DNA of 64,000 bases from an uncultured Chryseobacterium sp. (GTDB taxonomy: Bacteria > Bacteroidota > Bacteroidia > Flavobacteriales > Weeksellaceae). The position numbers and the translations under genes were made by a program. The notes under the pieces were generated by a model. That model was given only the letters and a program-made list of their open reading frames with translations. It did not search any database and was not told the DNA's origin. The stretch lies in NCBI GenBank assembly GCA_963526305.1, contig CAURNW010000007.1, positions 161,032-225,031 of the forward strand, written 5' to 3'. Shown here one piece after another: positions 20,401 through 40,500 of the stretch; the first letter of the stretch is position 1; each line of letters starts with the position of its first letter.

Positions 20401-20471
20401 AGACCCATGGTGTAACGGTAGCACTCTGGTTTTTGGTACCATCAGTTGGGGTTCGAATCCCTGTGGGTCTA
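20401..20471 (+). tRNA. tRNA-Gln (anticodon UUG), copy 1
   Basis: Hand-folded cloverleaf. The 7-bp acceptor stem agaccca/tgggtct pairs fully. D-arm gtgt/gcac. Anticodon loop ttTTGgt. T-arm tgggg-ttcgaat-ccctg. No encoded CCA. Confidence 0.9.
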
Positions 20472-20479
20472 CATTTAAG

Positions 20480-20514
20480 GAGAAATGATCAGTTTGATCA
20501 TTTCTCTTTTTTTT
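20480..20514 (+). terminator. Rho-independent terminator of tRNA-Gln copy 1
   Basis: gagaaatgatc-agttt-gatcatttctc stem followed by T8. Confidence 0.75.
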
Positions 20515-20553: not shown

Positions 20554-21142
20554 TCAATACAAGCCAATAATTTTCACTGTTCCGTCAATTTCTATTCTTC
20601 GAAGGTTTACTTTTCCATCTAATCCCATTTTTTTTCATGTTTCAAAAAATAAAGTTTCTACTCCTAAATTGTTTATTTCACCATTGCTATCAATACATTT
20701 GGTTCCGTTTAAAATAGGTTCTTTTAAATCCTTTGAAGAATCTCTATATTTATCTGAAAACAAGTCTAATTGTTCCTGTGAAAATTCGTCAAAGCATCCT
20801 GGTAAGTCCCGTTAAACAAAATAACATAATGCATTCTATTTGGTGTGACCATTCCCATAAAAGCGTTATTTACATTTGCAGGATCAGAAGTAGGCTGCGC
20901 TCTTGCAAATCCTAATAATTGATCAATATCCGGAGGCGAGAGCATCGGAATACCTGTCGGAGTATGGTTGTGATATGCTCTCCTGTATATCCTGTTTTGT
21001 CACCAAAATTTACACTGTGGGCACCTCCTGTTATCGTAGCAGAAGGTGTGCCGTCTGTTTTAAACTTGACTCCTTTTTCACCACCGGCAGTAGATTGTGT
21101 TTTAAGTTCATTGATTTTTGCCTGAACTTTCAGATTTTCCAA
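20554..21142 (-). pseudogene. Orphan cassette 4: decayed JAB-like C-terminal module. It has the 2-nt insertion plus further frameshift and stop lesions, and no partner gene.
   Basis: The upstream 76-aa piece is identical to orphans 2 and 3. The downstream reading MLSPPDIDQLLGFARAQ...NFHRNN* breaks after 57 aa. Homology (..LFFET*KKMGLDGKVNLRRIEIDGTVKIIGLY*) can be followed in other frames down to 20554. Confidence 0.75.
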
Positions 21143-21288
21143 CGTTTTTTAGTTTATTAAAAGGTGTTTTTTTCTAATGCTAAATTTATATCCTGCACAA
21201 TCCTCACTATTCGTTTCTCAATTTAGAGAATTATTTTACTGTTTTGTAAAAATCAAATCTTTGGTTTCAGGAAGATAAATATTGATAT
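20809..21288. repeat. Direct repeat copy A (480 bp, identical by eye to 22118-22597)
   Basis: Base-by-base comparison of the two stretches. The block spans the conserved core of the toxin-like module, the 93-nt linker and the last ~17 codons of the upstream partner gene. Confidence 0.9.
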
Positions 21289-21820
21289 CAGTTCCATCTG
21301 GACATTTAGTACTATCAAGAATTATATCATTGGGGCGATATTCCCATGAAATTTGCGAAGTATTTATTTTTTTTAGAATAATTTTACCCCAACCAACACC
21401 ACAGTTTGTTCCGCCGTAGCTAAATGTAATGGCATTTAGACTTGGAAGAGTTCTCATACTAACAATTGTATGTTGTATCTGATTAGAATGAAAAGTCATG
21501 TTCTGAGTATTTTGGATAATTATTCCAGATAAATTCTGTACAATATATTTAATTAATAGTACATCTCTGTAAAATTCTTGATCACCTAAATCTACTAATG
21601 TATGTATTTCTTTTGTTATAAAAATTGTAATTTTTTTATCTTGAAAATCAGCTTTATAGGTGCCAACATATGGATCCAATTCATTATCTATATCTTTTAA
21701 ATATGCATTCGAAGTGGTGTTTTCCAACAAAGTGTTTAAAGGTAAAATCTGTGATTTACAGGATAATACATTCATTAAAAGAATGAAAATTACTATTGAT
21801 TTTGTATTTATTGATTTCAT
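21236..21820 (-). CDS. Partner (immunity-like) lipoprotein, paralogue 4
   Basis: 194 aa. Signal peptide plus lipobox (NVLSC|KSQ). Family motifs YGGTNCGVGWG and KCPDGTDINIYLPETKDLIFTKQ. Starts 17 nt after the orphan-3 stop. Confidence 0.8.
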   Translation of the reverse strand: MKSINTKSIVIFILLMNVLSCKSQILPLNTLLENTTSNAYLKDIDNELDPYVGTYKADFQDKKITIFITKEIHTLVDLGDQEFYRDVLLIKYIVQNLSGIIIQNTQNMTFHSNQIQHTIVSMRTLPSLNAITFSYGGTNCGVGWGKIILKKINTSQISWEYRPNDIILDSTKCPDGTDINIYLPETKDLIFTKQ

Positions 21821-21837
21821 ATTTTTATTTTAGTGTT

Positions 21838-22451
21838 TTACAAACAAGGGACAGGAATTGGATTGTTATTATTATCTAAATTTATTTTTATAATTGTTCC
21901 GGTGCTCTGTATGCGTTGAAGGTCTATCTTACCCTCTAAGCCCATATATTTAATAGTTTTAAAAAATAATTTTTCCACACCACTACTATTTAGCGGACCT
22001 CCTAAATAATTTGTGTACAATAAATTTAAAGATAACTCATCTTCTATTTCTCCATATTTCTTCACATATTTATCCAAATCATCTTGCGAAAAATTAGTCA
22101 ATGCATCCTGATAATTTCCGTTAAACAAAATAACATAATGCATTCTATTTGGTGTGACCATTCCCATAAAAGCGTTATTTACATTTGCAGGATCAGAAGT
22201 AGGCTGCGCTCTTGCAAATCCTAATAATTGATCAATATCCGGAGGCGAGAGCATCGGAATACCTGTCGGAGTATGGTTGTGATATGCTCTCCTGTATATC
22301 CTGTTTTGTCACCAAAATTTACACTGTGGGCACCTCCTGTTATCGTAGCAGAAGGTGTGCCGTCTGTTTTAAACTTGACTCCTTTTTCACCACCGGCAGT
22401 AGATTGTGTTTTAAGTTCATTGATTTTTGCCTGAACTTTCAGATTTTCCAA
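21838..22451 (-). pseudogene. Orphan cassette 3: JAB-like C-terminal module split by a 2-nt insertion
   Basis: A 76-aa piece (22221..22451) ends out of frame after GDKTGYTGE. The 138-aa piece (21838..22254) resumes at MLSPPDIDQLLGFARAQ and carries a unique variable segment plus a conserved tail (EKLFFKTIKYMGLEGKIDLQRIQSTG). Confidence 0.8.
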
Positions 22452-22597
22452 CGTTTTTTAGTTTATTAAAAGGTGTTTTTTTCTAATGCTAAATTTATAT
22501 CCTGCACAATCCTCACTATTCGTTTCTCAATTTAGAGAATTATTTTACTGTTTTGTAAAAATCAAATCTTTGGTTTCAGGAAGATAAATATTGATAT
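22118..22597. repeat. Direct repeat copy B (480 bp, identical to copy A)
   Basis: Same comparison as for copy A. The offset is exactly 1309 bp. Confidence 0.9.
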
Positions 22598-23111
22598 TTG
22601 TTCCTTGTGGGCATTTAGTATAATCAAGAATAATATCATTAGGTCGATATTCCCATGAGATTTGAGTGGAGCTAATTTTTTTTAATTCAATACCTCCAAA
22701 GCCTACACCACAATTTGTTCCACCATAATTAAACCATACGATGCCTTTACTAGGATAAGTTCCTCGACTATATATTGTGTGTAGAAGTTGATTAGGCTGA
22801 AAAATCATACTTTGTGTATCTTGAAGAATATTTCCTGCTGAATTTTTAACAATATATCTTATAGACAGTGCGTCCTGATAAATATTTAATGATTTAAAAA
22901 ATCTCATTGTTTCCTTGTTAATGAATAATTTTATTTCATTTCCTTGAAAATAAGCTTTATACTCTCCTACATAAGGACTTAATTCGTTATTTAAATCTTT
23001 TATATAAGAGCCTTGTGGAATTTCTTCAAAATCTGTATTAAGAGGATAGGTTTGTTGTGCTTTGCACGAAATTGAAATAACGAATAAAATTAAATATTTT
23101 ATATTTTTCAT
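22545..23111 (-). CDS. Partner (immunity-like) lipoprotein, paralogue 3
   Basis: 188 aa. Signal plus lipobox (VISISC|KAQ). YGGTNCGVGFG and KCPQGTNINIYLPETKDLIFTKQ. Confidence 0.8.
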   Translation of the reverse strand: MKNIKYLILFVISISCKAQQTYPLNTDFEEIPQGSYIKDLNNELSPYVGEYKAYFQGNEIKLFINKETMRFFKSLNIYQDALSIRYIVKNSAGNILQDTQSMIFQPNQLLHTIYSRGTYPSKGIVWFNYGGTNCGVGFGGIELKKISSTQISWEYRPNDIILDYTKCPQGTNINIYLPETKDLIFTKQ

Positions 23112-23130
23112 ATTTTTTCTTTTTAAGATA

Positions 23131-23723
23131 TTAAGGACAAGTCGTAGTGGTTGTTGTTCCGTCAGTATTTTTATTTATTGTTTTTATAGTTCCATCATTT
23201 TCTATTCTTTGTAAATTAACTTTACCATCTAATCCCATATCTTTAAGCGCTTTGAAAAAAAATCATTCGATTGCTTCATTACTTACATCGCCAGTAGAAG
23301 GTTTATACATATCATATCTAGTTTGATAATCTCTTCCAAAAGCATCTAAATCAGATTGTGAATATGTAGTTATAGCATCCTGATAGGTTCCGTTAAACCA
23401 AATAACATAATGCATTCCATTTGGTGCGACCATTCCCATAAAAGCGTTGTTTACATTTGCAGGATTAGAAGTAGGTTGCGCTCTTGCAAATCCTAATAAT
23501 TGATCAATATCCGGAGGCGAGAGCATCGGAATACCTGTCGGAGTATGGTTGTGATATGCTCTCCTGTATATCCTGTTTTGTCACCAAAATTTACACTGTG
23601 GGCACCTCCTGTTATCGTAGCAGAAGGTGTGCCGTCTGTTTTAAACTTGACTCCTTTTTCACCACCGGCAGTAGATTGTGTTTTAAGTTCATTGATTTTT
23701 GCCTGAACTTTCAGATTTTCCAA
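23131..23723 (-). pseudogene. Orphan cassette 2: JAB-like C-terminal module with the 2-nt insertion plus an in-frame TGA
   Basis: The 76-aa piece (23493..23723) is identical to those of orphans 3 and 4. The 87-aa piece (23263..23526) ends ..NEAIE-TGA. The same frame then continues FFFKALKDMGLDGKVNLQRIENDGTIKTINKNTDGTTTTTTCP to the TAA at 23131. Confidence 0.8.
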
Positions 23724-23866
23724 CGTTTTTTAGTTTATTAAAAGGTGTTTTTTTCTAATGCTAAATTTATATCCTGCACAACCCTCACTATTCGTTTCTC
23801 AATTTAGAGAATTATTTTACTGTTTAGTAAAAATCAAATCTTTGGTTTCAGGAAGATAAATATTAA
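23477..23866. repeat. Direct repeat copy C (305 bp perfect match to copies A and B at 23477-23781, then near-identical to ~23866)
   Basis: Base-by-base comparison. The first mismatch on the upper side is at 23782 (c vs t). Offset to copy A is 2581 bp. Confidence 0.85.
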
Positions 23867-24401
23867 TATCAGTTCCATTCGGACATTTACTACTATCAAG
23901 AATTGTATCATTTGGTTGATATTCCCAAGAGATTTGATTTGAGTTTAGTTTTTTTAAATATATACTTCCCCAGCCGACACCACAATTTGTACCTCCATAA
24001 GAAAACATTACTAAATTATGATAAGGATTAATCATTGTACTGAAAATAGTGTGTCGAATTTGATTAATATCAAAGTTCATATTTTGAGTGTCTTGGAGCA
24101 CATTTCCTGATAAATTTTTAACAATAAATTTTATAGATAAAACATCTTTATAGAATTTTTGACTTCCAAAATTTTTGAGCGTCTTTTCTTGTTTATTTAT
24201 ATAAATTATAATATTATTTCCATTGTATGTTGAAGTATATGTTCCAATATATGGGTTTAATTCATTGTTTAAGTCTTTTAAATAAGAATAATCAGGTATA
24301 TTTCTAAAATCTGTATTTAATGGATATTCTTGTGCTTTACAAGATAAAAAACTTATGAAAAGACTAAAAAGAATTATTGTTTTAATATTTATTGTTTTCA
24401 T
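23817..24401 (-). CDS. Partner (immunity-like) lipoprotein, paralogue 2
   Basis: The ORF track gives 23817..24428. The likely start is MKTINIKTIILFSLFISFLSC|KAQ at 24401. YGGTNCGVGWG and KCPNGTDINIYLPETKDLIFTKQ. Confidence 0.8.
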   Translation of the reverse strand: MKTINIKTIILFSLFISFLSCKAQEYPLNTDFRNIPDYSYLKDLNNELNPYIGTYTSTYNGNNIIIYINKQEKTLKNFGSQKFYKDVLSIKFIVKNLSGNVLQDTQNMNFDINQIRHTIFSTMINPYHNLVMFSYGGTNCGVGWGSIYLKKLNSNQISWEYQPNDTILDSSKCPNGTDINIYLPETKDLIFTKQ

Positions 24402-24415
24402 ATTGAATATTTTAA

Positions 24416-24967
24416 TTATTGTGAGCATGTTGATGAAGTTGGTTGATTGCTACTATTAAGACTTACTATTTTTACTGTGCCATCACTTTCGATTCTTTGT
24501 AAATTTACTTTACCTTCTAAACCCATATTTTTTAGTGTCTCAAAGAACAATTTTTCTAAACCGTTACTATTTAGATTTAAATGGTCACTTGAATAGAAGG
24601 GATTTAATAGAAAAAGGTCTTTGTAAGCTAGATAATTATCTGAAAATCCATCTAGCTGAACTTGTGAGAAATTCGTCAAAGCATCTTGATAATTTCCGCT
24701 AAACCAAATAACATAATGCATTCCATTTGGTGCAACCATTCCCATAAAAGCGTTATTTACATTTGCAGGATTAGAAGTAGGCTGCGCTCTTGCAAATCCT
24801 AATAATTGATCAATATCTGGAGGCGAGAGCATCGGAATACCTGTCGGAGTATGGTTGTGATCTGCTCGTGCATATCCTGTTTTGTCACCAAAATTTACAC
24901 TGTGAGCACCTCCTGTTATTGTAGCAGAAGATGTGCCGTCTGTTTTAAACTTGACTCCTTTCACCAC
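24416..24967 (-). CDS. Orphan cassette 1: 5'-truncated JAB-like C-terminal module with an intact HNH...S..D motif, no signal peptide, and probably silent
   Basis: 183-aa ORF from a GTG start. Upstream homology continues to the ATG at 25016 (MKVRKKINELKTQYTAGGE) but is out of frame because of a 2-nt deletion in an A-run (gaaaaagg to gaaagg). The C-terminal 47 aa are identical to the full-length gene. Confidence 0.6.
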   Translation of the reverse strand: MVKGVKFKTDGTSSATITGGAHSVNFGDKTGYARADHNHTPTGIPMLSPPDIDQLLGFARAQPTSNPANVNNAFMGMVAPNGMHYVIWFSGNYQDALTNFSQVQLDGFSDNYLAYKDLFLLNPFYSSDHLNLNSNGLEKLFFETLKNMGLEGKVNLQRIESDGTVKIVSLNSSNQPTSSTCSQ

Positions 24968-25119
24968 CGGCAGTATATTGTGTTTTAAGTTCGTTGATTT
25001 TTTTCCGAACTTTCATATTTTCTAATGTGTTTTCGTTTACTACAGGGTTGTTCGTTTCTAATACTAGATTTGTATTAGGACCAATTTTCACTATTCGTTT
25101 CTTGATTTAGAAAATTATT

Positions 25120-25692
25120 TTACTGTTTTGTAAAAAGCAAATCTTTGGTTTCAGGAAGGTAAATATTAATATCCGTTCCACTTGGGCATCTACTACTATC
25201 TATAATTATATCATCGGGGTGATATTCCCAAGATAATTGAGTTGTGCTTATTTTTTTTAAAATAATATCTCCCCAGCCTACGCGACAATTTGTTCCACTG
25301 TAATAGAAAATAATGGAATTTATATCAGGTCTTGGCTTAATACTAAATAATTTAATTTGAGAATTACTATTGTTTTTCGTGTCTTGAAGTACTTCTCCAG
25401 AAGAGTTTTTAACTATATATTGAATATCTAAAATATCCGAATAATAATTTTTTAAAGAACTTTTTTGTAAAACATTTTCAACTTTTGTAATATATAGTGT
25501 AATTTCTTTTCCATTAAAAGTAGCTTTGTAAATTCCTTCATATGGAGGTAATTCATTATTTAAATCTTTTTTATGTGCATTGGCTGGAATATCTTTCAAA
25601 GGTGTATTCAAAGGTATTGTCTGTGCTTTACAAGATAAAAAACTTATGAAAAAACTAAAAAGAATTATTGTTTTAATATTTATTGTTTTCAT
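25120..25692 (-). CDS. Partner (immunity-like) lipoprotein, paralogue 1 (cognate of the full-length gene)
   Basis: The ORF track gives 25120..25719. The likely start is MKTINIKTIILFSFFISFLSC|KAQ at 25692, 14 nt after the upstream stop. Family motifs SGTNCRVGWG and RCPSGTDINIYLPETKDLLFTKQ. Confidence 0.8.
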   Translation of the reverse strand: MKTINIKTIILFSFFISFLSCKAQTIPLNTPLKDIPANAHKKDLNNELPPYEGIYKATFNGKEITLYITKVENVLQKSSLKNYYSDILDIQYIVKNSSGEVLQDTKNNSNSQIKLFSIKPRPDINSIIFYYSGTNCRVGWGDIILKKISTTQLSWEYHPDDIIIDSSRCPSGTDINIYLPETKDLLFTKQ

Positions 25693-25706
25693 ATTGAATA
25701 TTTTAA

Positions 25707-27338
25707 TTATTGTGAGCATGTTGATGAAGTTGGTTGATTGCTACTATTAAGACTTACTATTTTTACTGTGCCATCACTTTCGATTCTTTGTAAATTTACT
25801 TTACCTTCTAAACCCATATTTTTTAGTGTCTCAAAGAACAATTTTTCAACACCTGCATTATTTATTAAACCATTACTATTAACATATGTAGTTCCATTTA
25901 AAATTGGTTCCACTAAATCATTCTTTAATATTCGATAATCAATATTAAAAGTATTCAATTGTTCTTGTGAGAAATTAGTCAAAGCATCCTGATAGGTTCC
26001 GTTAAACCAAATAACATAATGCATTCCATTTGGTGCGACCATTCCCATAAAAGCGTTGTTTACATTTGCAGGATTAGAAGTAGGCTGCGCTCTTGCAAAT
26101 CCTAATAATTGATCAATATCCGGAGGCGAAAGCATCGGAATACCTGTCGGAGTATGGTTGTGATATGCTCCTGCATATCCTGTTTTGTCACCAAAATTTA
26201 CACTGTGGGCACCTCCTGTTATCGTAGCAGAAGGTGTGCCGTCTGTTTTAAACTTGACTCCTTTTTCACCACCGGCAGTAGATTGTGTTTTAAGTTCATT
26301 GATTTTTGCCTGAACTTGCGGATTTGTTAAAATAGCTTTCGTTTTTGTACAGGGATTGTTAACAATTTGATCATAAAACTGCTCCCATGTCAGATTAGGG
26401 TTTTCCATAAAAACCTGTATCGCAAAATTAGCAAAATCTTGATAATAGCTATTTTGCGGAGGAGATAAAGGTGGGATATGGTCAAGATAATATTCTAAAA
26501 TGTTACAATAAATATCAGCATGCTCTACAGCCCAGGATTTCGCCTGATCGGTTTGTGAGTGGAAAAAGCTACCCGCTCTTGCTGCTCTTACGTAGGATGG
26601 TTCAATTGTGGGGGGAATATTAGGGTCAAAAGTGTAGCCGCTCGGGTCATACAATCCTGTTCCTCCACCGCCTCCGCCATTGTCACCACCTCCTGGGAAA
26701 CTTCCGCCTCCTCCTGTACTTCCGCCACCGCCACCTCCGCATTCATAAGAAGTATAGCCTGAACTGGTGAAAAGACATTGAGCGCACTTATCGCATTGTG
26801 ACCATGACTGCCCCTCTTTACAATGCCATATTTCTATGGAATAAAAATCTGAACATATTCTTGCTGTGGATGGATTATTTATTTTTGTTACAATGCCTTT
26901 CTGAGAATCATATACAGGAATTAGCTCGTTATCTAAAATCTTAACAATTGAAAATGCTACATCATTGGCATTTTTTCTATAAACAAGATTGTAAACGGTT
27001 TCCGGGTTTTCAAAAATATTATACGCTCGTAAAGCATAGGTCTGAGTGTTGTTGACATCCATTTTGTAAATGGAAGTCTCGTCAATAAAGAATCTTCTTA
27101 GATAATCAGTGTTCGCACTGCTTTTGCCAGATAAGGGATTATCTGTTCTTTTAAAGTCATTGACCCCACTCAAAAAAGTCTCTTTTTGAAAAATACCTGT
27201 ACTGATTTTTTGATGAATGTGTTCTCCTGATTTTTCTTCATTGTGTTTTACTATTGCTTCTAAATCAGTTCTACAGGAATGGAAAGTGATACTAATGGCT
27301 ATCAGTAAAGACAACCACAAAATAAATTTGTTTTTCAT
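25707..27338 (-). CDS. Full-length lipoprotein with a C-terminal JAB/JAMM-like module (putative polymorphic toxin)
   Basis: 543 aa. Signal plus lipobox (ISITFHS|C). Cys-rich block (CSDFYSIEIWHCKEGQSWSQCDKCAQCLF...YEC). Gly-rich linker GGGGGGSTGGGGSFPGGGDNGGGGGGTG. Core GGEKG-x-..GGAHSVNF..AYHNHTPTGIPMLSPPDIDQLL, i.e. E...HxH-x8-S-x2-D. Confidence 0.85.
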   Translation of the reverse strand: MKNKFILWLSLLIAISITFHSCRTDLEAIVKHNEEKSGEHIHQKISTGIFQKETFLSGVNDFKRTDNPLSGKSSANTDYLRRFFIDETSIYKMDVNNTQTYALRAYNIFENPETVYNLVYRKNANDVAFSIVKILDNELIPVYDSQKGIVTKINNPSTARICSDFYSIEIWHCKEGQSWSQCDKCAQCLFTSSGYTSYECGGGGGGSTGGGGSFPGGGDNGGGGGGTGLYDPSGYTFDPNIPPTIEPSYVRAARAGSFFHSQTDQAKSWAVEHADIYCNILEYYLDHIPPLSPPQNSYYQDFANFAIQVFMENPNLTWEQFYDQIVNNPCTKTKAILTNPQVQAKINELKTQSTAGGEKGVKFKTDGTPSATITGGAHSVNFGDKTGYAGAYHNHTPTGIPMLSPPDIDQLLGFARAQPTSNPANVNNAFMGMVAPNGMHYVIWFNGTYQDALTNFSQEQLNTFNIDYRILKNDLVEPILNGTTYVNSNGLINNAGVEKLFFETLKNMGLEGKVNLQRIESDGTVKIVSLNSSNQPTSSTCSQ

Positions 27339-30312: not shown

Positions 30313-30720
30313 ATGGAGCATAAAATACATCAGGGAAGAAATATCAAACGATTTAGAGAAATGCTGGGCATCAAACAGGAAGCTCTGGCTTTTGATCTGG
30401 GTGAAGAATGGAATCAAAAGAAAGTTTCTCTGTTGGAGCAGAAAGATATAATTGACGATACTTTACTTCAAAAAATATCTGAAGTTTTAAAGGTTCCCGT
30501 AGAAGCTATTCAGAACTTCGATGAGCAGTCAGCGATACATATTATTGCGAATACAATTACCAATCATGACAATGGATCTGTTTATAATAACCATCCGATA
30601 TTTCAGCCGATTGATAAACTGATACAACTTCATGAGGATAAAATTGCTCTCTATGAACGTATGCTGAAAGAGAAAGATGATATGATGGCAAGGTTTGAGA
30701 AGCTAATTAAAAATAACTGA
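30313..30720 (+). CDS. XRE-family helix-turn-helix transcriptional regulator
   Basis: 135 aa. GRNIKRFREMLGIKQEALAFDLG...VSLLEQ is a typical HTH_3 pattern. Confidence 0.75.
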   Translation: MEHKIHQGRNIKRFREMLGIKQEALAFDLGEEWNQKKVSLLEQKDIIDDTLLQKISEVLKVPVEAIQNFDEQSAIHIIANTITNHDNGSVYNNHPIFQPIDKLIQLHEDKIALYERMLKEKDDMMARFEKLIKNN

Positions 30721-30832: not shown

Positions 30833-31192
30833 TTAGTAAAATCCTTCTTTTTCTCTAAATTGCATTTTATCCATATATTTATCTATACAGTTAATATCTT
30901 CTTCCCATATATTAGAAAATTTGGACCATTTACCATCGGGATCGAAATCAATAGATAATTCATTAATAACATTTATAAACAGGTTATCATTGAAAGCTTG
31001 ACCACTACAATTAGCAATTCTCTCATTTATTAAGGTTAATACAATATGTTTAATATTCTTCACATTCTTGAACTTTAAAACTATATAAATTAATAGTATT
31101 AATACAAAATGATAATCAAGTATATTATTTTTTATTTTTTCATATTCAAAATCTAAAATTTTTTTAAAATCTAACTGAATTTTTTCTTCCAT
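30833..31192 (-). CDS. Hypothetical protein
   Basis: 119-aa ORF in very AT-rich DNA. No recognisable motif. Confidence 0.4.
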   Translation of the reverse strand: MEEKIQLDFKKILDFEYEKIKNNILDYHFVLILLIYIVLKFKNVKNIKHIVLTLINERIANCSGQAFNDNLFINVINELSIDFDPDGKWSKFSNIWEEDINCIDKYMDKMQFREKEGFY

Positions 31193-31361
31193 ATAATTTT
31201 ATTTAGGAAACTGTTCTACTGTCTGATATTTCTCCTATTATCAACAAAGAAAGAAAATCTAGCAACCTGAATTATCAAACAATTGAAGAATTTAACAATC
31301 AAAACAAAATTTATAAAATGTAGCTTAACTTACACTGGAATTTATTTGTATATCCAGGTAT

Positions 31362-32594
31362 TTATTTTTTATTTTTTATTTTTTCCCACTCTACAGCATA
31401 AGGGTATAAATATTTTAATTCCGGTTTTTTATATAATGAATCCTCTTTATATTTTTTAATAAAATAAGATAGATCAGGGTTTTTATTTAAAGGAGGAAAC
31501 ATCATATATCTGACACCTCCTTTAAAACCTTTTTCTTTAACAATATCCTCTCCTACTTTAGTCTGCTCTGTTATTTTAAATGCTGCAAAATATATTAATG
31601 GAAGTAAAAATGGGAGAAAAAAATAAATCTTTCTTGGAAAATAATCCATTCCTCTTCCTATAAATATTAAAAGAAAAACATATGGGACTAAATGAAAAAC
31701 GTATATATCCGAAACATTGTGTTTTATACAGAAAAACAGGAAAGGGGTAATTCCTACAGCTATGTAATCAATTCTTTCTTTATTTCTTAATCCTAAAAAA
31801 ATAAAGAAAACAAAAAAAAGAAAATTATATAATAAAAATCCTATATTCCTAACAATACTTTTGAAGATTATTTTAATATTAAAATTGAAAATAGAATCTT
31901 GATAAGCATTATCAGTAAAAATGGATAAAAGAGAATGATATCCTAGTGCCACTGGGATCAATAAAATTGAAAATATAATGATCAGAATCAATCCTCCGTA
32001 AATAATATGCTCCTTAAGGATTTTATAATTTTTAAAAATTAAGTAGAAGTAAATAGGAATAAAAAGTATTGACTGAATATGTATCAAAAAAAGAATACCA
32101 AAAATAATCGATAGATAATAAAAATACAAAGGCTTTCTTTCCTGAAGAAACTTAAAAATATTAATTAAAAATAAAATAACAAAAACTAAATAAAAAGTAT
32201 ATACCTCAGTTATTACGGACATCCTCCAGAAAGTAAATGAAAAACCAAAAAGCAGCAAACATATAAATGATGATCTACGTGAAATACCCACTATATATAA
32301 TAGTTTATTTAAATAGTAAAGTGAAAGTACTGACGAAATAATACTAATCCCTACGCATACAGAGTGTACATTTTGAAAAGGTAATATTTTGTAAATTAAT
32401 GAGAGGAAATTCGAATATAAAAAGTGGTTTGTAGCATTAGATTCGAAGACAAATCCATGATAAGCTTGAATGGTAAAAGGTAAACTGTCACCTAAAGAAG
32501 GATCTTTTGCTGATGAATACACATAAATTAATGCTAATAACACCAAGCAGATAATTATATAAAGGTCAAATCTCTTATTTGATAAAATATTCAT
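31362..32594 (-). CDS. Polytopic integral membrane protein, possibly a GT-C-type/DUF2723-like glycosyltransferase
   Basis: 410 aa with at least 10 hydrophobic helices. The N-terminal loop DPSLGDSLPFTIQAYHGF resembles the acidic first loop of GT-C enzymes. Weak, by-eye. Confidence 0.45.
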   Translation of the reverse strand: MNILSNKRFDLYIIICLVLLALIYVYSSAKDPSLGDSLPFTIQAYHGFVFESNATNHFLYSNFLSLIYKILPFQNVHSVCVGISIISSVLSLYYLNKLLYIVGISRRSSFICLLLFGFSFTFWRMSVITEVYTFYLVFVILFLINIFKFLQERKPLYFYYLSIIFGILFLIHIQSILFIPIYFYLIFKNYKILKEHIIYGGLILIIIFSILLIPVALGYHSLLSIFTDNAYQDSIFNFNIKIIFKSIVRNIGFLLYNFLFFVFFIFLGLRNKERIDYIAVGITPFLFFCIKHNVSDIYVFHLVPYVFLLIFIGRGMDYFPRKIYFFLPFLLPLIYFAAFKITEQTKVGEDIVKEKGFKGGVRYMMFPPLNKNPDLSYFIKKYKEDSLYKKPELKYLYPYAVEWEKIKNKK

Positions 32595-32901
32595 ATGTAG
32601 CTGATTTTGTGTTCATTTCGTTTCTCTAAAATTTTATATTTTATAAAATCTTAAAATAGATTGATTAATAACTAATTTTTAGCAATTAATTTAAAATAAT
32701 TTTTACAAATTTAAAACATTTGATATAGACTTATTAACACATATTATAATGACAATTATCCAAGTTGCCCGCAAAAATAGCCTTTAATATTAAAGCTTAT
32801 TCAATAGTACACTTTTGTATTTGAAAAATTTTACAGATTCTTATACACCCATTCAATAAAAACCTTATTGCTAATTTTATCACAATCAAACATACCAAAA
32901 A

Positions 32902-33453
32902 ATGAATTCAGTAACCATCCGTAAAGCTGAACCCAAAGATTACCCTGCCATTATACAGCTTCAGAATGCAAACACCCCTGAAAGATTAAGCGAAGAAGAG
33001 AAAAAACAGGGCTTTGTCGTTTCTGCAATGACCGAAAAAACAATTCACTTTATTAATGAAAATTTAGGTGTCTTGGTTACGGTAGAAAATAATCAGCTGG
33101 CTGGATTTGTATGCCTGGCATCTACCCATCCCCTCCCAGACCACCCTGTGGCGAAAGCCATGTATCATACTTTTCCCTATCAGAAATTCAACGGCAAATT
33201 ACTGACAGATTTCAATATCTTTATTTACGGTCCTGTTTTAATAGACCCGAAATACAGAGGCAGAGGAATTTTAAAAAGTCTTTTCAATGCCGTGAAAAAA
33301 TACACAGAGCATGATTATGATTTAGGAGCCGCATTTATTAATGACAAAAACCCGCATTCTCTCGCAGTTCACGTTGAAGGATTAGGGATGAGCTGCCTGC
33401 AGCCGTTTGAGTCAGGGGACGAAAAGTTTCACCTAGTTGTTTTTGAAGTTTAA
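32902..33453 (+). CDS. GNAT-family N-acetyltransferase
   Basis: 183 aa. IRKAEPKDYPAIIQL start and an acetyl-CoA-binding-like segment, IDPKYRGRGILKSLFNAV. Confidence 0.8.
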   Translation: MNSVTIRKAEPKDYPAIIQLQNANTPERLSEEEKKQGFVVSAMTEKTIHFINENLGVLVTVENNQLAGFVCLASTHPLPDHPVAKAMYHTFPYQKFNGKLLTDFNIFIYGPVLIDPKYRGRGILKSLFNAVKKYTEHDYDLGAAFINDKNPHSLAVHVEGLGMSCLQPFESGDEKFHLVVFEV

Positions 33454-33995: not shown

Positions 33996-36275
33996 ATGGA
34001 GACGCAAAAATTTCACTATGACAATACGATTGTCAGGGCATTCCTCTATGCCACGGTCGCATTCGGGATCATTGGTTTTATCTTAGGGCTCACTGCAGCT
34101 TTGATGCTTTTTTACCCTGAATTACCTGAATTTTTATTCGGTACCGATGATACCACAATTCAAAGTTTGAGAAGCGGAAATATCCAGGGTTTAATCAACT
34201 CTCAGGGGGCATTGGGATTTGGCAGAATCAGAATGCTGCATACCAGTGCCGTGATTTTTGCATTTGTCTGTAATTCATTTTTTTGTGGTGCGTACTACAG
34301 CCTTCAGAGACTTTTAAAAACACGCATGTACAGTGATACTCTTTCATGGATTCATTTCTGGACATGGCAAATCATGATTATTGCTGTCGTAATCACCTTT
34401 CTGATGGGAATCAACACCTCAAAAGAATACGCTGAACATGAATGGCCGATTGATATTTTAATCACATTCTCCTGGGTAATTTTCGGAATCAATCTGTTTG
34501 GAACAATAGCCAAAAGAAGAGTGCGTCATCTCTATGTTGCGATTTGGTTTTATATTGCCACGTGGATCGCTGTTGCCATGCTCCATATCTTTAATAATCT
34601 TGAAGTTCCCTTATCATTCACCGGATGGAAATCCTATTCTGCCTATGCAGGAGTGAAAGATGCTCTGGTGCAGTGGTGGTACGGTCACAATGCAGTTGCC
34701 TTTGTCCTGACAACACCTGTTTTGGGACTGATGTATTATTTCATGCCGAAAGCAGCAAACAGGCCTGTCTTTTCATATAAATTATCTATCATCCACTTCT
34801 GGTCTCTGATCTTTGTTTATCTCTGGGCAGGACCTCATCATCTTCAGTACACCGCTTTACCAGCGTGGGCTCAGGCAGTGGGTACGGGATTCTCCATCAT
34901 GCTGATCGCACCTTCATGGGGTGGAATGCTGAACGGTCTTTTAACCCTGAGAGGTGCCTGGGATAAAGTAAGAGAAAACCCTATCCTTAAATTTTTCGTT
35001 GTCGCCGTTACCTGTTATGGGATGGCCACTTTCGAAGGACCGCTTTTAGCAACCAAATCTTTAAATAAAATAGGGCATTATACCGACTGGGTAATCGGTC
35101 ACGTTCATTTAGGAGCCTTAGGATGGAATGGATTTATGGCTTTCGGAGTCGTTTATTATCTTGTTCCGATCATGTGGCGGACCGAACTCTGGTCAAAAAA
35201 ACTTGCCAACTGGCATTTCTGGCTGGGAACATTAGGAATTATTTTCTATGCCGTTCCAATGTATATCGCAGGATTTACGCAGGGTCTGATGTGGAAACAG
35301 TTCAATCCTGACGGAACGCTGCTCTGGAAAAACTGGCTGGATACCGTAACAGCAATCATTCCCTATTTTAAATTGAGGTTCTTAGGCGGATTATTTTATC
35401 TGGGCGGAGCAGTTCTAATGGTCGTTAACGTTTTCAAAACTATAAGATCAGGCTCTTTTCAGAAAGAAGTTTCTGCTGAAGCTCCTGCTCTTGCCAGGGT
35501 CGGAAGCAGCAGAAAAGAAGGTGAAGGCATACATCTCTGGCTGGAAAGAACTCCTCACCTCTTATCTGTCCTGGCTTTTGTAGCAATTGCCATTGGCGGA
35601 CTCGTAGAGATTGTTCCTACGCTGACAGTGAAAAGTAATCTGCCTCAGATATCTGCCGTAAAACCTTATTCTCCGCTTGAGCTGGAAGGCCGGGATCTTT
35701 ACATCAGGGAAGGCTGTAATGCGTGCCACTCACAGATGATCAGACCTTTCCGTGATGAGGTAACAAGATTTGACGGAAAAAACGGACAGTATTCCAAAGC
35801 AGGAGAATTCGTTTACGACAGACCGTTTTTATGGGGATCGAAAAGAACAGGTCCTGATCTTCACAGGGAAGGAGACAGAAATCCGGATTCGTGGCATTTC
35901 AAACACATGTACAATCCAAGAATTACTTCGGCGGGATCTATTATGCCCCGTTTCCCTTGGTTGATTACCAACAAGCTTGACCGTTCAAAAATGGTGGATA
36001 AGATAAAACTAATGAAAAATACTTTTGATATGCCTTACTCAAAAGCAGCAATAGATTCTGCAGATCAGTGGGCCGACCACCAGTCAGCAGCGATTGTTAA
36101 AAGGATTTATGCAGAGGCTGCAGACGTCCGAGATCAGATGGAAAAAGAAAAAACGGCAAGAGGAAACACATTTGTTCCTCTTGAACAGCGGGAAATCATC
36201 GCCATGATTGCCTACCTGCAAAGACTGGGAACAGACATTAAAACGACCGACATTAAAACAGCAGGCATCAAATAA
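33996..36275 (+). CDS. ccoNO: cbb3-type cytochrome c oxidase, fused subunits I and II (CcoN/CcoO)
   Basis: 759 aa. Twelve or more TM helices with heme-copper histidines (HFWSLIFVYLWAGPHH, GHVHLGALGW), then a C-terminal mono-heme CcoO part (CNACHSQMIRPF). Confidence 0.92.
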   Translation: METQKFHYDNTIVRAFLYATVAFGIIGFILGLTAALMLFYPELPEFLFGTDDTTIQSLRSGNIQGLINSQGALGFGRIRMLHTSAVIFAFVCNSFFCGAYYSLQRLLKTRMYSDTLSWIHFWTWQIMIIAVVITFLMGINTSKEYAEHEWPIDILITFSWVIFGINLFGTIAKRRVRHLYVAIWFYIATWIAVAMLHIFNNLEVPLSFTGWKSYSAYAGVKDALVQWWYGHNAVAFVLTTPVLGLMYYFMPKAANRPVFSYKLSIIHFWSLIFVYLWAGPHHLQYTALPAWAQAVGTGFSIMLIAPSWGGMLNGLLTLRGAWDKVRENPILKFFVVAVTCYGMATFEGPLLATKSLNKIGHYTDWVIGHVHLGALGWNGFMAFGVVYYLVPIMWRTELWSKKLANWHFWLGTLGIIFYAVPMYIAGFTQGLMWKQFNPDGTLLWKNWLDTVTAIIPYFKLRFLGGLFYLGGAVLMVVNVFKTIRSGSFQKEVSAEAPALARVGSSRKEGEGIHLWLERTPHLLSVLAFVAIAIGGLVEIVPTLTVKSNLPQISAVKPYSPLELEGRDLYIREGCNACHSQMIRPFRDEVTRFDGKNGQYSKAGEFVYDRPFLWGSKRTGPDLHREGDRNPDSWHFKHMYNPRITSAGSIMPRFPWLITNKLDRSKMVDKIKLMKNTFDMPYSKAAIDSADQWADHQSAAIVKRIYAEAADVRDQMEKEKTARGNTFVPLEQREIIAMIAYLQRLGTDIKTTDIKTAGIK

Positions 36276-37578: not shown

Positions 37579-40500
37579 TTGAAACTGAAATTCAACAAAA
37601 GAAAAATCATAAGAGGTATTGTTATTACGATAACCTCTATAATCGTTTTGATCATACTGCTAATCCTGAGTTTACGTCTTCCTGCGGTGCAGAACTATGT
37701 AAAAGATAAACTGATTGTCTATCTGGAGAAAAAGATCAAAACCAAAGTCAGTCTTGACAGAGTTTATATAGGTTTCCCCAACAGCCTTGTCATGGAAAAT
37801 CTATATCTTAAAGGTCAGAATATTGACACATTACTCTCTGCAAGAAAATTGGATGTAGGGCTTGATATGTGGCAACTGATGAATTCAAAAGCTGATCTTA
37901 CCTCGATCGATCTTGAAGGTGTTCGGGCTAATGTTGTAAGAAATCCACAAGGCAAATTCAATTTTGATTATATTATTGACGCATTTGCAACTTCCGAAAA
38001 ACAAGAAAGCACTTCAAAACCATTTATCATTTCTCTGGATAAAATCAAGCTGAAGGATATCGGACTGACATTTAATGACCAGCAGTCTAAAAATGATATT
38101 AAAGTATATTTTAATTCTTTTGATACCAGGGTAAAAACGTTTGACCTTCAAAACAATTCTTACGCCGTCAATGATATCAATCTTGACGGGTTAAAATTAA
38201 AACTGAAACAGGATTTTGTAGAAGAAGTTTCTAAAAACGTAGAAAAGAAAGTAGATTCCCTGAATCAGAAGAAGCCTATGAAACTTGGTTTAAGTGGCAT
38301 CAGACTGACCAATTTCAATATTGATTATGGTGATGACAATTCCAGAACTTTTGCGAAAGTCCTTTTTAAAGAATTAAGCACAAAAGTCAACAGCATTGAT
38401 CTTGAAAACAAAGATTATAATGTGGGAAATGTATATCTTACGGGAGCTGCTATCAATGCCAATTTATTTCTCCCTACAGAAAATGCAGACCCGAAGAAAA
38501 ATAGCGATCCTGCTGTTTCAACTGTTTCAGCGAAGGAGAAAGCAATGAAAGTTCTATTGGGCAAACTGATATTGGATGATGTAAAAGTTGCCTATAACAA
38601 TACAGCTGTTGCCCCGGCCAAAAGCGGAATGGATTTTAACCATCTTAATTTCGGTCAGTTAAACCTTGACGTCAGAAATTTTAAAATGGAAAACAATGGT
38701 TTTGCAGGAAGTGTAAAGTCAGCGGAAATCCGGGAGTCAAAAGGTCTGAATGTACAGAAGTTCAATACTGATTTTGTGTATTCAGATAAAGAAGCATACC
38801 TGAAGAACCTTTACCTGCAGACACCTAAAACAATACTGAGGGATGAGATCATCTTAAACTATAACTCAGTTGAACAGCTGTCAGCAAATCCGGGGGCTGT
38901 TAAAATATCTGCAGACATCCGTGACTCAAAAATCGGGTTTTCAGATATCCTGAATATAGTACCTACGCTTAGAAATACCGCCCCATTTAATAAGTATCCT
39001 AATGCTATTTTAAATGTCAATGCCAATATAAAAGGGAACGTCAATGATCTTGACATCCAGAATCTGAAAGTTTCAGGATTGGACCAACTTAAGGTTGCCG
39101 CATCAGGTAGGATAAAGAATGCAATGAATCCTGATCAGTTATATTATGATCTGAAAATTGCAGAAGTTTCTTCTTCATCCAAAACGATTTACAACTTAGT
39201 TCCTAAAAATACAATTCCGAATACGGTTTCGTTACCGTCATTCTTCACTATTCGCGGAACAGCGAAAGGTACTACCAAGATTGTTGACACCAATCTACGT
39301 TTGACATCAACTTTGGGAAATGCGGCCGTCATCGCAAAAGCTGATCTAAGAAGAAAAAACAGAGAGATTTTTGATGTAAAAGCCAATCTGCAGAATCTTC
39401 AGATCGGAAAACTTATCAAAAATAAAGATCTTGGAAGCATTACCGCACAAATCTCTGCAAAAGGACAGGGTTTTGATCCTAAAATTATGTCAGCCCAGAT
39501 GACAGGAGATGTGAAATCTGCAACGTACAACGGTTACACCTACCAGAATATGTATCTGAAAGGAAAAATCAACCGTGGAGCGTATAATATCGACCTAAAT
39601 TCTAAAGATCCGAATGCAAATTTACATTTAGCTGCTTCAGGCATTTACAATGAAAAAAATCCTACCGTAAAAGTTAACGGAAACATCAATAAATTAGATC
39701 TTAATAAATTAGGATTTTACAGTTCTCCTATGATTATTGCAGGTGCAATTGACGGTGATTTTAAAAGCCTGGACCCTGATAACCTGAACGGCTATCTGAA
39801 TCTTAAAGATTTTGCCATTTCAGATACAAAAGAAGTCTATCCTATTCAGGAAGTCAATCTTTTAGCCGTTTCAACAGCAGAAGCAACGCAGATTAAATTC
39901 AATTCCCAGATTGCCGATGTCGAACTGAACGGAAAATACAAGCTGACCCAAATCTTCGGAGCATTACAGCAAACGGTAAATCAGTATTATCAGTTTCAAA
40001 AACCCGGAAAAACTCAGAAAATTGACGCAGGACAGTTTTTTACCGTCAATGCATCGATTAAAAATGATGACCTCATCAGAAAATTTGTTCCCGAACTGAA
40101 AAGCTTTGAGACCATCAATATTACCGGAAACTATAATGCAGATTCTCAGAAAATAGAACTTGATGCAAAAATACCTCAGGTCCTGTATGGCGAAAATACA
40201 CTTGAAAATACAAACTTAAAAATCACTAACGAAAACCAGGCACTGCAGTACAGTCTTGATGTAGCCGCATTGAAAAGTGAAAGTTTTGCTCTGAATAAAG
40301 TCAATATCAACGGGGACGTTGCCCAGAATATTATCAATTACAATATTACCACGAAAGATGACAAAGATCAGACGCAGTTCCTGATCGCAGGTAATGCAAA
40401 ATCAATGAATGATATTACCGAAATTTCCTTAAATCCAAACGGTTTAAAATTAAATTACATGGACTGGACCGTTGCCGAAGGTAATAAAATTCAAATAGGA

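Follow-up and report, generated by a model that had tools for sequence, protein, structure and literature searches.

What is the function of a lipoprotein gene that is followed by the gene of a small second lipoprotein and then, four times over, by pieces of its own 3' part? The question is posed by a locus in a stretch of 64,000 nucleotides (nt), hereafter the window, from an uncultured Chryseobacterium sp. (contig CAURNW010000007.1 of assembly GCA_963526305.1, positions 161,032 to 225,031), in which it reads on the minus strand from position 27338 down to 20554. The gene at its head encodes a protein of 543 amino acids (aa) with a C-terminal module that resembles JAB/JAMM metallopeptidases, and the small lipoprotein belongs to the family DUF6705. 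We assign a probability of roughly 0.72 to the reading that the locus is a polymorphic interbacterial toxin-immunity system, one member of a family centred on Chryseobacterium. This reading, which rests on the comparison of sequences, is favored because the two genes are adjacent in every related locus, modules are swapped at a sharp junction, arrays with several DUF6705 genes exist, the partner changes with the C-terminus, module and partner genes decay differently, and the pair is mobile. All comparative tests that were run agree with the toxin/partner interpretation offered in an earlier note on this DNA; its picture of an expressed pair backed by silent intact modules, however, has had to give way to one in which the additional modules are pseudogenes.

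The putative toxin, its partner and their relatives

The full-length gene, which we treat as a putative toxin gene, occupies 25707..27338 on the minus strand. Its product is ordered as signal peptide, N-terminal domain, Cys-rich block (residues 162-200), Gly-rich linker (residues 201-228), helical pre-toxin region, NNPC junction and C-terminal module. The signal peptide and the lipobox FHSC (27273..27338, minus strand) end at the lipid-anchor residue Cys22, from which the sequence continues as C-R-T-D-L-E, which agrees in part with the lipoprotein export signal of Bacteroidota. A database protein of uncultured Chryseobacterium sp. has 100% identity to the 543-aa product, and profile scans of the latter gave no significant Pfam or NCBIfam match; searches of PDB sequences with it, one with the single sequence and two with profiles, returned Gly-linker and His-tag artefacts only. 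The product is thus a predicted lipoprotein in which a delivery-type N-terminal part and a Gly-rich linker precede a C-terminal module of ~215 aa, and the earlier description of a 543-aa lipoprotein with a Cys-rich block and a poly-Gly linker holds for the open reading frame (ORF), the lipobox and both blocks.

The JAB-like module (residues 328-543; 25710..26357, minus strand) starts at the NNPC junction, is bounded by Cys330 and Cys541, and ends two residues past the latter. It carries the motif GGEKG (E358) ... H393-N-H395-x8-S404-x2-D407, which puts residue numbers on the GGEKG ... HxH-x8-S-x2-D core recognized in the earlier note. In an alignment of 29 diverse modules, the bounding Cys pair, the Glu, both His, the Ser and the Asp are among the invariant residues. 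The residue between the two His varies across the family (HNH, HSH, HTH, HVH and HCH), and the His-Ser spacing is x8 in the window clade as against x7 in the JAMM motif. The cognate partner gene, I0 (25120..25692, minus strand), starts 14 nt past the stop codon of the 543-aa gene, as had been claimed, and encodes a DUF6705 lipoprotein of 190 aa that is predicted to form a beta-barrel and is proposed here as the immunity protein.

A database search with the 543-aa protein identified 166 relatives, almost all from Chryseobacterium and nearly all lipoproteins, and a profile search of 1.84 billion cluster representatives yielded 857 at E<=1e-3. Among the matches listed, the module forms the C-terminus of the full-length proteins, and many of the shorter matches are fragments. 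A DUF6705 gene comes ~10-70 nt after the module in each of the 35 related genome loci. Variant modules with HSH and HTH are likewise followed by DUF6705, and one such locus, L038, has four DUF6705 genes. Matches to DUF6705 beyond the first are present in 17 of the 35 loci (L003, L006-L010, L019, L021, L023, L024, L026, L028-L030 and L032-L034), and cassettes consisting of a truncated module and a DUF6705 gene were found in L024, L029 and L032. The last of these, from the isolate genome of C. gossypii, combines one full-length gene with three truncated modules, and its partner genes are intact. A comparison of the loci of relatives had been suggested in the earlier note, and it reveals that extra DUF6705 copies or truncated modules are frequent.

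The relatives also locate the point of exchange. P0002-P0008 share 85-90% identity with the query over the N-terminal 327 residues, while BLAST finds their C-termini to be 47%, 45% or 24% identical or detects no similarity; conversely, N-termini that are only ~25% identical carry modules that are 70-80% identical. The swap junction falls at residues ~327-330, that is, at NNPC. Alternative C-termini on the same scaffold retain E-x-G, H[NST]H and S-x2-D between a PC...PC pair of cysteines. P0009 combines the same N-terminal scaffold with an unrelated, non-JAB C-terminus, and here the next gene encodes a 139-aa multi-pass membrane protein, not DUF6705. At the level of sequence, these comparisons show exchange of the module among unrelated N-termini, with PC as the fixed point of junction, and a DUF6705 lipoprotein gene that invariably comes after it.

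The chromosomal site differs among close relatives, two of which have integrase genes beside them. In L036 (encoding P0004) and L041 (encoding P0002), both with the same N-terminal scaffold, the pairs adjoin genes for a phage-type integrase, a primase (D5_N/Pox_D5) and SocA_Panacea. In some genomes, the toxin-DUF6705 pair appears to travel on integrative elements.

A mosaic array of broken modules and intact partner genes

In a repeat search of the window, a block of ~300 nt appears five times in register, and the distances from one start to the next are 1303, 1306, 1272 and 1309 bp; the periods of 1303, 1272 and 1309 bp reported before are all real, and the 1306-bp spacing had been omitted. 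Each of the four units downstream of the expressed pair contains a damaged module, all on the minus strand. Orphan module 1 (24416..25052) has a 2-nt deletion in GGEKG (~24960), and its frame is open to the stop codon downstream of the frameshift. Orphan module 2 (23134..23723) combines a 2-nt insertion before HNH (~23560) with a TGA codon at 23263-23265. Orphan module 3 (21838..22451) carries a 2-nt insertion (~22290), downstream of which the frame is open to the stop codon. Orphan module 4 (20554..21142), which is truncated at its end, has a 2-nt insertion (~20981), a 1-nt deletion (~20781) and a TGA codon at 20635-20637. The 2-nt insertion, just 5' of HNH, is identical in cassettes 2, 3 and 4. 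The tails are open in cassettes 1 and 3 and dead in cassettes 2 and 4.

The orphan partner genes, also on the minus strand, are intact: I1 (23817..24401, 194 aa), I2 (22545..23111, 188 aa) and I3 (21236..21820, 194 aa), with 60, 55 and 55% identity, respectively, to I0, which agrees with the 50-60% estimated by eye. In DNA of ~30% GC, an intact reading frame is thus found in none of the four orphan modules and in all three orphan DUF6705 genes. The orphan modules are pseudogenized fragments, not silent intact modules; the four repeats of the C-terminal module seen at first reading exist, but every one of them is broken by frameshifts or stop codons. Cassette 4 lacks a partner gene, as had been observed, and abuts a tRNA-Gln(ttg) gene (20401..20472, plus strand). 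Directly after this tRNA gene, a hairpin at 20477-20509 with a 15-bp stem, followed by a T-run, delimits the array. A tRNA gene is located at the array end, but no integrase lies nearby.

Alignment of the five units with MAFFT and calculation of nucleotide identity per segment resolve a four-part mosaic. A 5' homology block of ~340 nt that encodes the catalytic core (25995..26331 in the main unit, minus strand) is 93-99% identical in all five units and is a likely recombination substrate. The last ~285 nt of the module, its tail, are 55-79% identical between units, and the first ~490 nt of the partner gene 63-69%. Identity rises again to 82-96% in a 3' homology block (25050..25199, minus strand) composed of the last ~80 nt of the partner gene, which encode IYLPETKDLIFTKQ, and a ~70-nt spacer; this block recurs after I1, I2 and I3. 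Variation is confined to the last ~90 aa of the module and to the initial two-thirds of the partner gene. The same mosaic is present genus-wide at the protein level, with mean distances of 0.33 for the core, 0.52 for the tail, 0.48 for the 5' part of the immunity protein gene and 0.21 for its 3' end. On the other side of the core block, the left edge of every orphan unit decays exactly where the NNPC junction falls. Over a tract of 194 nt (25654-25847 in the main unit), amid sequence of 69-79% identity, the main unit and cassette 1 do not differ at all; the tract runs from the 3' end of the module into the part of the partner gene that encodes the signal peptide, and a recent gene conversion between these two units is therefore indicated.

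No strict TAnnTTTG promoter is found at the orphan modules, as previously remarked, but the remark is uninformative since the scan finds none upstream of any gene, the main one included, and the counts equal the shuffled expectation. No terminator-like site was detected on the minus strand inside the array, in a scan that has no statistical power here. On the plus strand, identical ORFs of 85 and 68 aa occur three times (20903-21160, 22212-22469 and 23484-23741); they are by-products of the repeated core block and are not evidence of genes.

Fold, localization and the weighing of alternatives

A confident AlphaFold2 model of the module (predicted local distance difference test score, pLDDT, 93.7; predicted template modeling score, pTM, 0.90) has its best PDB fold matches in BRCC36, Pyrococcus PfJAMM1 and the Jab1 domain of Prp8, with probabilities of up to 0.96. 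Because of the invariant motif and these fold matches, the module is classed as JAB-like by motif and predicted fold, but it is outside every described JAB family. We infer that it is a Zn-dependent JAB/JAMM-like hydrolase with a Cys330-Cys541 disulfide staple. In the viral structure library BFVD, the model has nine matches at E<=1e-3, the best down to 2e-6, all of them to uncharacterized phage proteins and 'minor capsid proteins', mostly unnamed; MPN- or JAB-named proteins and those of giant viruses come lower in the match list. Several of the top matches are siphovirus 'minor capsid proteins' of 500-600 aa, which suggests that polymorphic toxins of the MuF type in phages carry a related domain; JAB domains are not mentioned in the paper on MuF phage toxins, and the 'minor capsid protein' link remains a lead.

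All four partner proteins of the window match Pfam DUF6705 (PF20448) with 32.9-41.2 bits, above the gathering cut-off of 24.4, and E-values of 7e-8 to 2e-10, and their database homologues are likewise annotated DUF6705. The profile searches proposed in the earlier note thus placed the small lipoproteins in a family and found no sequence match for the module. A DUF6705 model (pLDDT 88) is an all-beta barrel, similar to small barrels of the calycin type and to Tp17, a lipoprotein of Treponema. The lipobox cysteine and two further cysteines are invariant in these proteins. In the literature, we found no description of DUF6705, or of a Chryseobacterium toxin family with the present module.

The two proteins differ in the residues that follow the lipid anchor. 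In the Bacteroidota lipoprotein export signal (LES), as defined by experiment, two acidic residues follow a polar or basic one, and the optimal form is C-X-K-(D/E)2-X (Lauber et al. 2016, PMC5080379). The consensus of the toxin family after the lipid-anchor cysteine is R-x-(D/E)-(D/E), with the acidic pair at +4/+5 in most members, whereas that of DUF6705 after the lipobox cysteine is K-A-Q-T-L-P. At least two acidic residues at +2 to +6 are present in 121 of 172 members of the toxin family versus 0 of 93 DUF6705 proteins. This contrast in export-like signals, together with the conserved cysteines in both proteins, points to exposure of the toxin on the surface and to an immunity protein that faces the periplasm, which would place the target in the periplasm. 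JAB-type toxins may be nucleases according to Zhang et al. 2012 (PMC3482391); it is speculation on our part that an immunity protein which is a lipoprotein argues for a substrate in the envelope instead.

The following mechanism would account for the locus. The toxin would be flipped to the cell surface by means of its acidic, export-signal-like sequence, possibly also packed into vesicles, and would act in the periplasm of neighboring cells. DUF6705, probably a beta-barrel lipoprotein of the outer membrane, lacks the export signal and would therefore face the periplasm, where it would bind and block the toxin; protection against the cognate putative toxin is the most likely role of the small lipoprotein. 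The four downstream units would be displaced earlier modules, whose toxin parts have been inactivated and of which three immunity genes have been kept, and the latter may widen protection to neighbors with those toxin tails. Homology for recombination with the expressed gene would be provided by the core block on the 5' side and by the block of immunity-gene end and spacer on the 3' side, and the variable toxin tail could in this way be swapped along with the matching immunity protein. Since the frameshifts sit inside the core block, a productive chimera would have to arise from crossovers downstream of them, where ~190 nt of near-identical sequence are left before the variable tail.

A more specific version of this mechanism is put forward tentatively, and we regard it as rather less likely than otherwise. 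Delivery would require no dedicated secretion system: surface-flipped and possibly vesicle-borne lipoproteins, specific to Flavobacteriia, would carry a JAB-type (iso)peptidase with a disulfide staple to the neighbors' periplasm, a periplasm-facing beta-barrel lipoprotein would neutralize it, and cassette recombination would change only the tail recognized by the immunity protein, leaving the catalytic core constant. If this is true, the module would be the first JAB toxin that acts in the periplasm, and DUF6705 would acquire a function.

Several observations weigh against a toxin-immunity system with a JAB-like effector. The PDB fold matches of the module are weak, with E-values of 0.02-0.2 and TM-scores (template modeling scores) of 0.3-0.5. 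No Pfam family of the JAB clan (JAB, Prok-JAB, RadC, DUF4329 or Toxin-JAB1) is matched at E<=10 by any of >70 homologues scanned, which include the most divergent HSH, HTH, HVH and HCH variants, and no other toxin family was matched either in the Pfam and NCBIfam scans of these homologues. The JAB-like assignment made in the earlier note accordingly keeps the support of the invariant motif and the fold matches and gains none from sequence profiles. Alignment of the module profile with E. coli YeeS, a RadC-like JAB protein, by hhalign indicated no relation, although a single-sequence target is weakly informative. For a polymorphic toxin, the module is unusually conserved, with 50-80% identity across the genus, and in Mantel tests of co-variation with the immunity protein the toxin tail (r=0.45) is barely above the core (r=0.39). 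In the window protein, which reads C-R-T-D-L-E here, the acidic residues D (+4) and E (+6) are not adjacent. Finally, the source is a metagenome-assembled genome of an uncultured Chryseobacterium, for which repeat assembly cannot be fully vouched for. Three names given to homologues by UniProt deserve mention: P0029 (Chryseobacterium glaciei A0O34_15600) is called 'DUF4329 domain-containing protein', and the names 'YHYH domain-containing' and 'Baseplate wedge subunit' are given to two further homologues. The current Pfam scan bears out none of the three names.

The conservation of the module would suit a secreted or surface metallopeptidase accompanied by a dedicated periplasmic inhibitor or chaperone, with a role in nutrition or envelope remodeling and with downstream units that are decaying tandem duplications. 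By analogy, such a pair would follow the logic of serralysin and its periplasmic beta-barrel inhibitor, to which the prediction of a small beta-barrel lipoprotein as partner is congenial, as are housekeeping neighbors and the lack of secretion or conflict genes among them. We nevertheless consider this unlikely, because sharp swaps between unrelated N-termini and between divergent C-termini, DUF6705 arrays that exist without enzymes, partner genes that stay intact while enzyme fragments decay, and pairs beside integrases at varied chromosomal sites typify conflict systems, not housekeeping pairs of enzyme and inhibitor.

Less likely still is a system for surface-lipoprotein variation without any toxin, in which the exposed C-terminal tail would be altered by gene conversion from silent cassettes and so evade phages or predators. 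Frameshifted, promoter-less cassettes between near-identical blocks, the 194-nt tract as a sign of recent conversion and the surface-export-like signal on the large lipoprotein are what such a system would predict. It leaves unexplained that each cassette with a partner keeps a complete separate gene, intact and with its own signal peptide, that an enzyme-type motif is invariant across the family, that the partner is obligatory in all 35 loci, and that the type of partner shifts with the type of C-terminus. Functionless debris or an assembly artefact, with repeats mis-assembled in the metagenome-assembled genome and frameshifts as sequencing errors, is very improbable and was rejected: two of the lesions do lie in short repeats (an A-run and GAGA), but the units, with only 55-79% identity in their variable parts, are not collapsed copies of one sequence, two nonsense substitutions and a truncation are among the lesions besides indels, and isolate genomes such as L032 share the layout of truncated modules and intact DUF6705 genes.

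Known systems and the surroundings of the array

The traits by which Zhang et al. 2012 recognize polymorphic toxins recur in this family: C-termini exchangeable at a sharp junction, a downstream gene that matches the C-terminus in type, and arrays of orphan or multiple immunity genes. The closest described precedent for the window locus is Tox-JAB-1 with the lipoprotein immunity protein Imm65, a polymorphic toxin system of Bacteroidetes (Zhang et al. 2012, PMC3482391), Imm65 being the sole lipoprotein immunity protein in that 2012 survey (PMC3482391). Both systems have a JAB-type domain with E, HxH, S and D, Sec-type export and a lipoprotein as immunity protein, and both occur in Bacteroidetes. 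They differ in that Tox-JAB-1 is found on RHS-repeat proteins and has NxxxE, whereas the window protein is without RHS repeats and has T-A-G-G-E, with T at E-4, which is also the family consensus. No member scanned matches Pfam Toxin-JAB1 or Imm65, and the window partner is DUF6705. A second type, Tox-JAB-2/DUF4329 (Zhang et al. 2012), shares H[ST]H with divergent alleles on the window-type N-terminus, and the phage and giant-virus groups listed for it are the same groups as the best viral-library fold matches of the module. Its immunity protein is NTF2-like, in contrast to the lipoprotein beta-barrel here, and the Pfam DUF4329 model matches neither P0029 nor any other member scanned.

JAMM/MPN+ isopeptidases of the BRCC36, Pyrococcus JAMM1 and Rpn11 type share the metal-binding and catalytic motif E...HxH...S-x2-D and supply the best PDB folds. 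The window module, unlike these, has x8 instead of x7 and an extra C-terminal subdomain of ~90 aa, is predicted to be extracytoplasmic, is Cys-bounded, and has no detected profile similarity to them. For the LES lipoproteins of Bacteroidota (Lauber et al. 2016, PMC5080379), the likeness is in the acidic residues that most members of the window family have at +4/+5 after the lipobox Cys; their known cargo consists mostly of Sus-like nutrient-capture proteins, not toxins, and surface exposure of the window family is a prediction from sequence.

The layout of the locus recalls contact-dependent and Rhs toxins. Arrays of CdiA-CT/CdiI and Rhs-CT/RhsI consist of a full-length gene followed by 5'-truncated toxin fragments and immunity genes, and their shared homology allows recombination and switching. 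The window arrangement of a full-length gene, truncated modules and immunity genes may be regarded as analogous. It is, however, without FHA or RHS repeats, without a VENN or DPxGL junction, for which the PC cysteine of NNPC stands in, and without genes of type V or type VI secretion systems. Its homology block moreover lies inside the toxin domain, so that only the C-terminal third is swapped with the immunity gene. The earlier note had drawn this parallel and stressed that the array is built from Bacteroidota lipoproteins; the logic of the layout stands, whereas for lipoproteins Tox-JAB-1/Imm65 provides a precedent (PMC3482391).

Compared with these systems, the sequences point to a new family with a new delivery scaffold inside an already known kind of system, and no current concept is overturned, the general architecture having been predicted computationally in 2012. 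If the toxin-immunity reading is confirmed, the uncharacterized DUF6705 would be assigned the function of an immunity lipoprotein, a toxin family that has so far not been modeled would be defined with at least 857 cluster representatives at E<=1e-3, and Chryseobacterium and its relatives would be found to arm ordinary surface lipoproteins with exchangeable toxin modules. The family would also provide a tractable case for the target of JAB-type toxins (peptide bonds versus nucleic acid) and for the path of a lipid-anchored protein into the periplasm of a neighbor.

The genes that neighbor the array are housekeeping genes, among which no secretion or conflict genes were found. Domain scans of the locus and its neighbors detected no Rhs, CdiA, PAAR, VgrG or LXG domain and no C-terminal domain of the type IX secretion system, which agrees with the first reading of the window. 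The nearest helix-turn-helix (HTH) gene of the window, of type HTH_3, is at 30313-30720 on the plus strand, 3 kb from the toxin gene. In two related loci, an XRE-family HTH gene lies divergently just upstream of the toxin gene (L037:2511-2876 and L038:3568-3936), and it could be a regulator of the latter. The G+C content is 0.27-0.32 across the array (21000-26000), compared with 0.36-0.40 in the flanks, and falls to 0.23-0.26 at 31000-33000, around a PMT_2-type glycosyltransferase gene (31362-32594); these two regions of low G+C may be acquired DNA. Farther away, 33996-36275 holds a fused gene for a cbb3-type oxidase subunit, with COX1 and FixO domains in one ORF of 759 aa, and 37579-42615 encodes a TamB/DUF748 protein of 1678 aa; both are ordinary housekeeping genes that are unrelated to the array.

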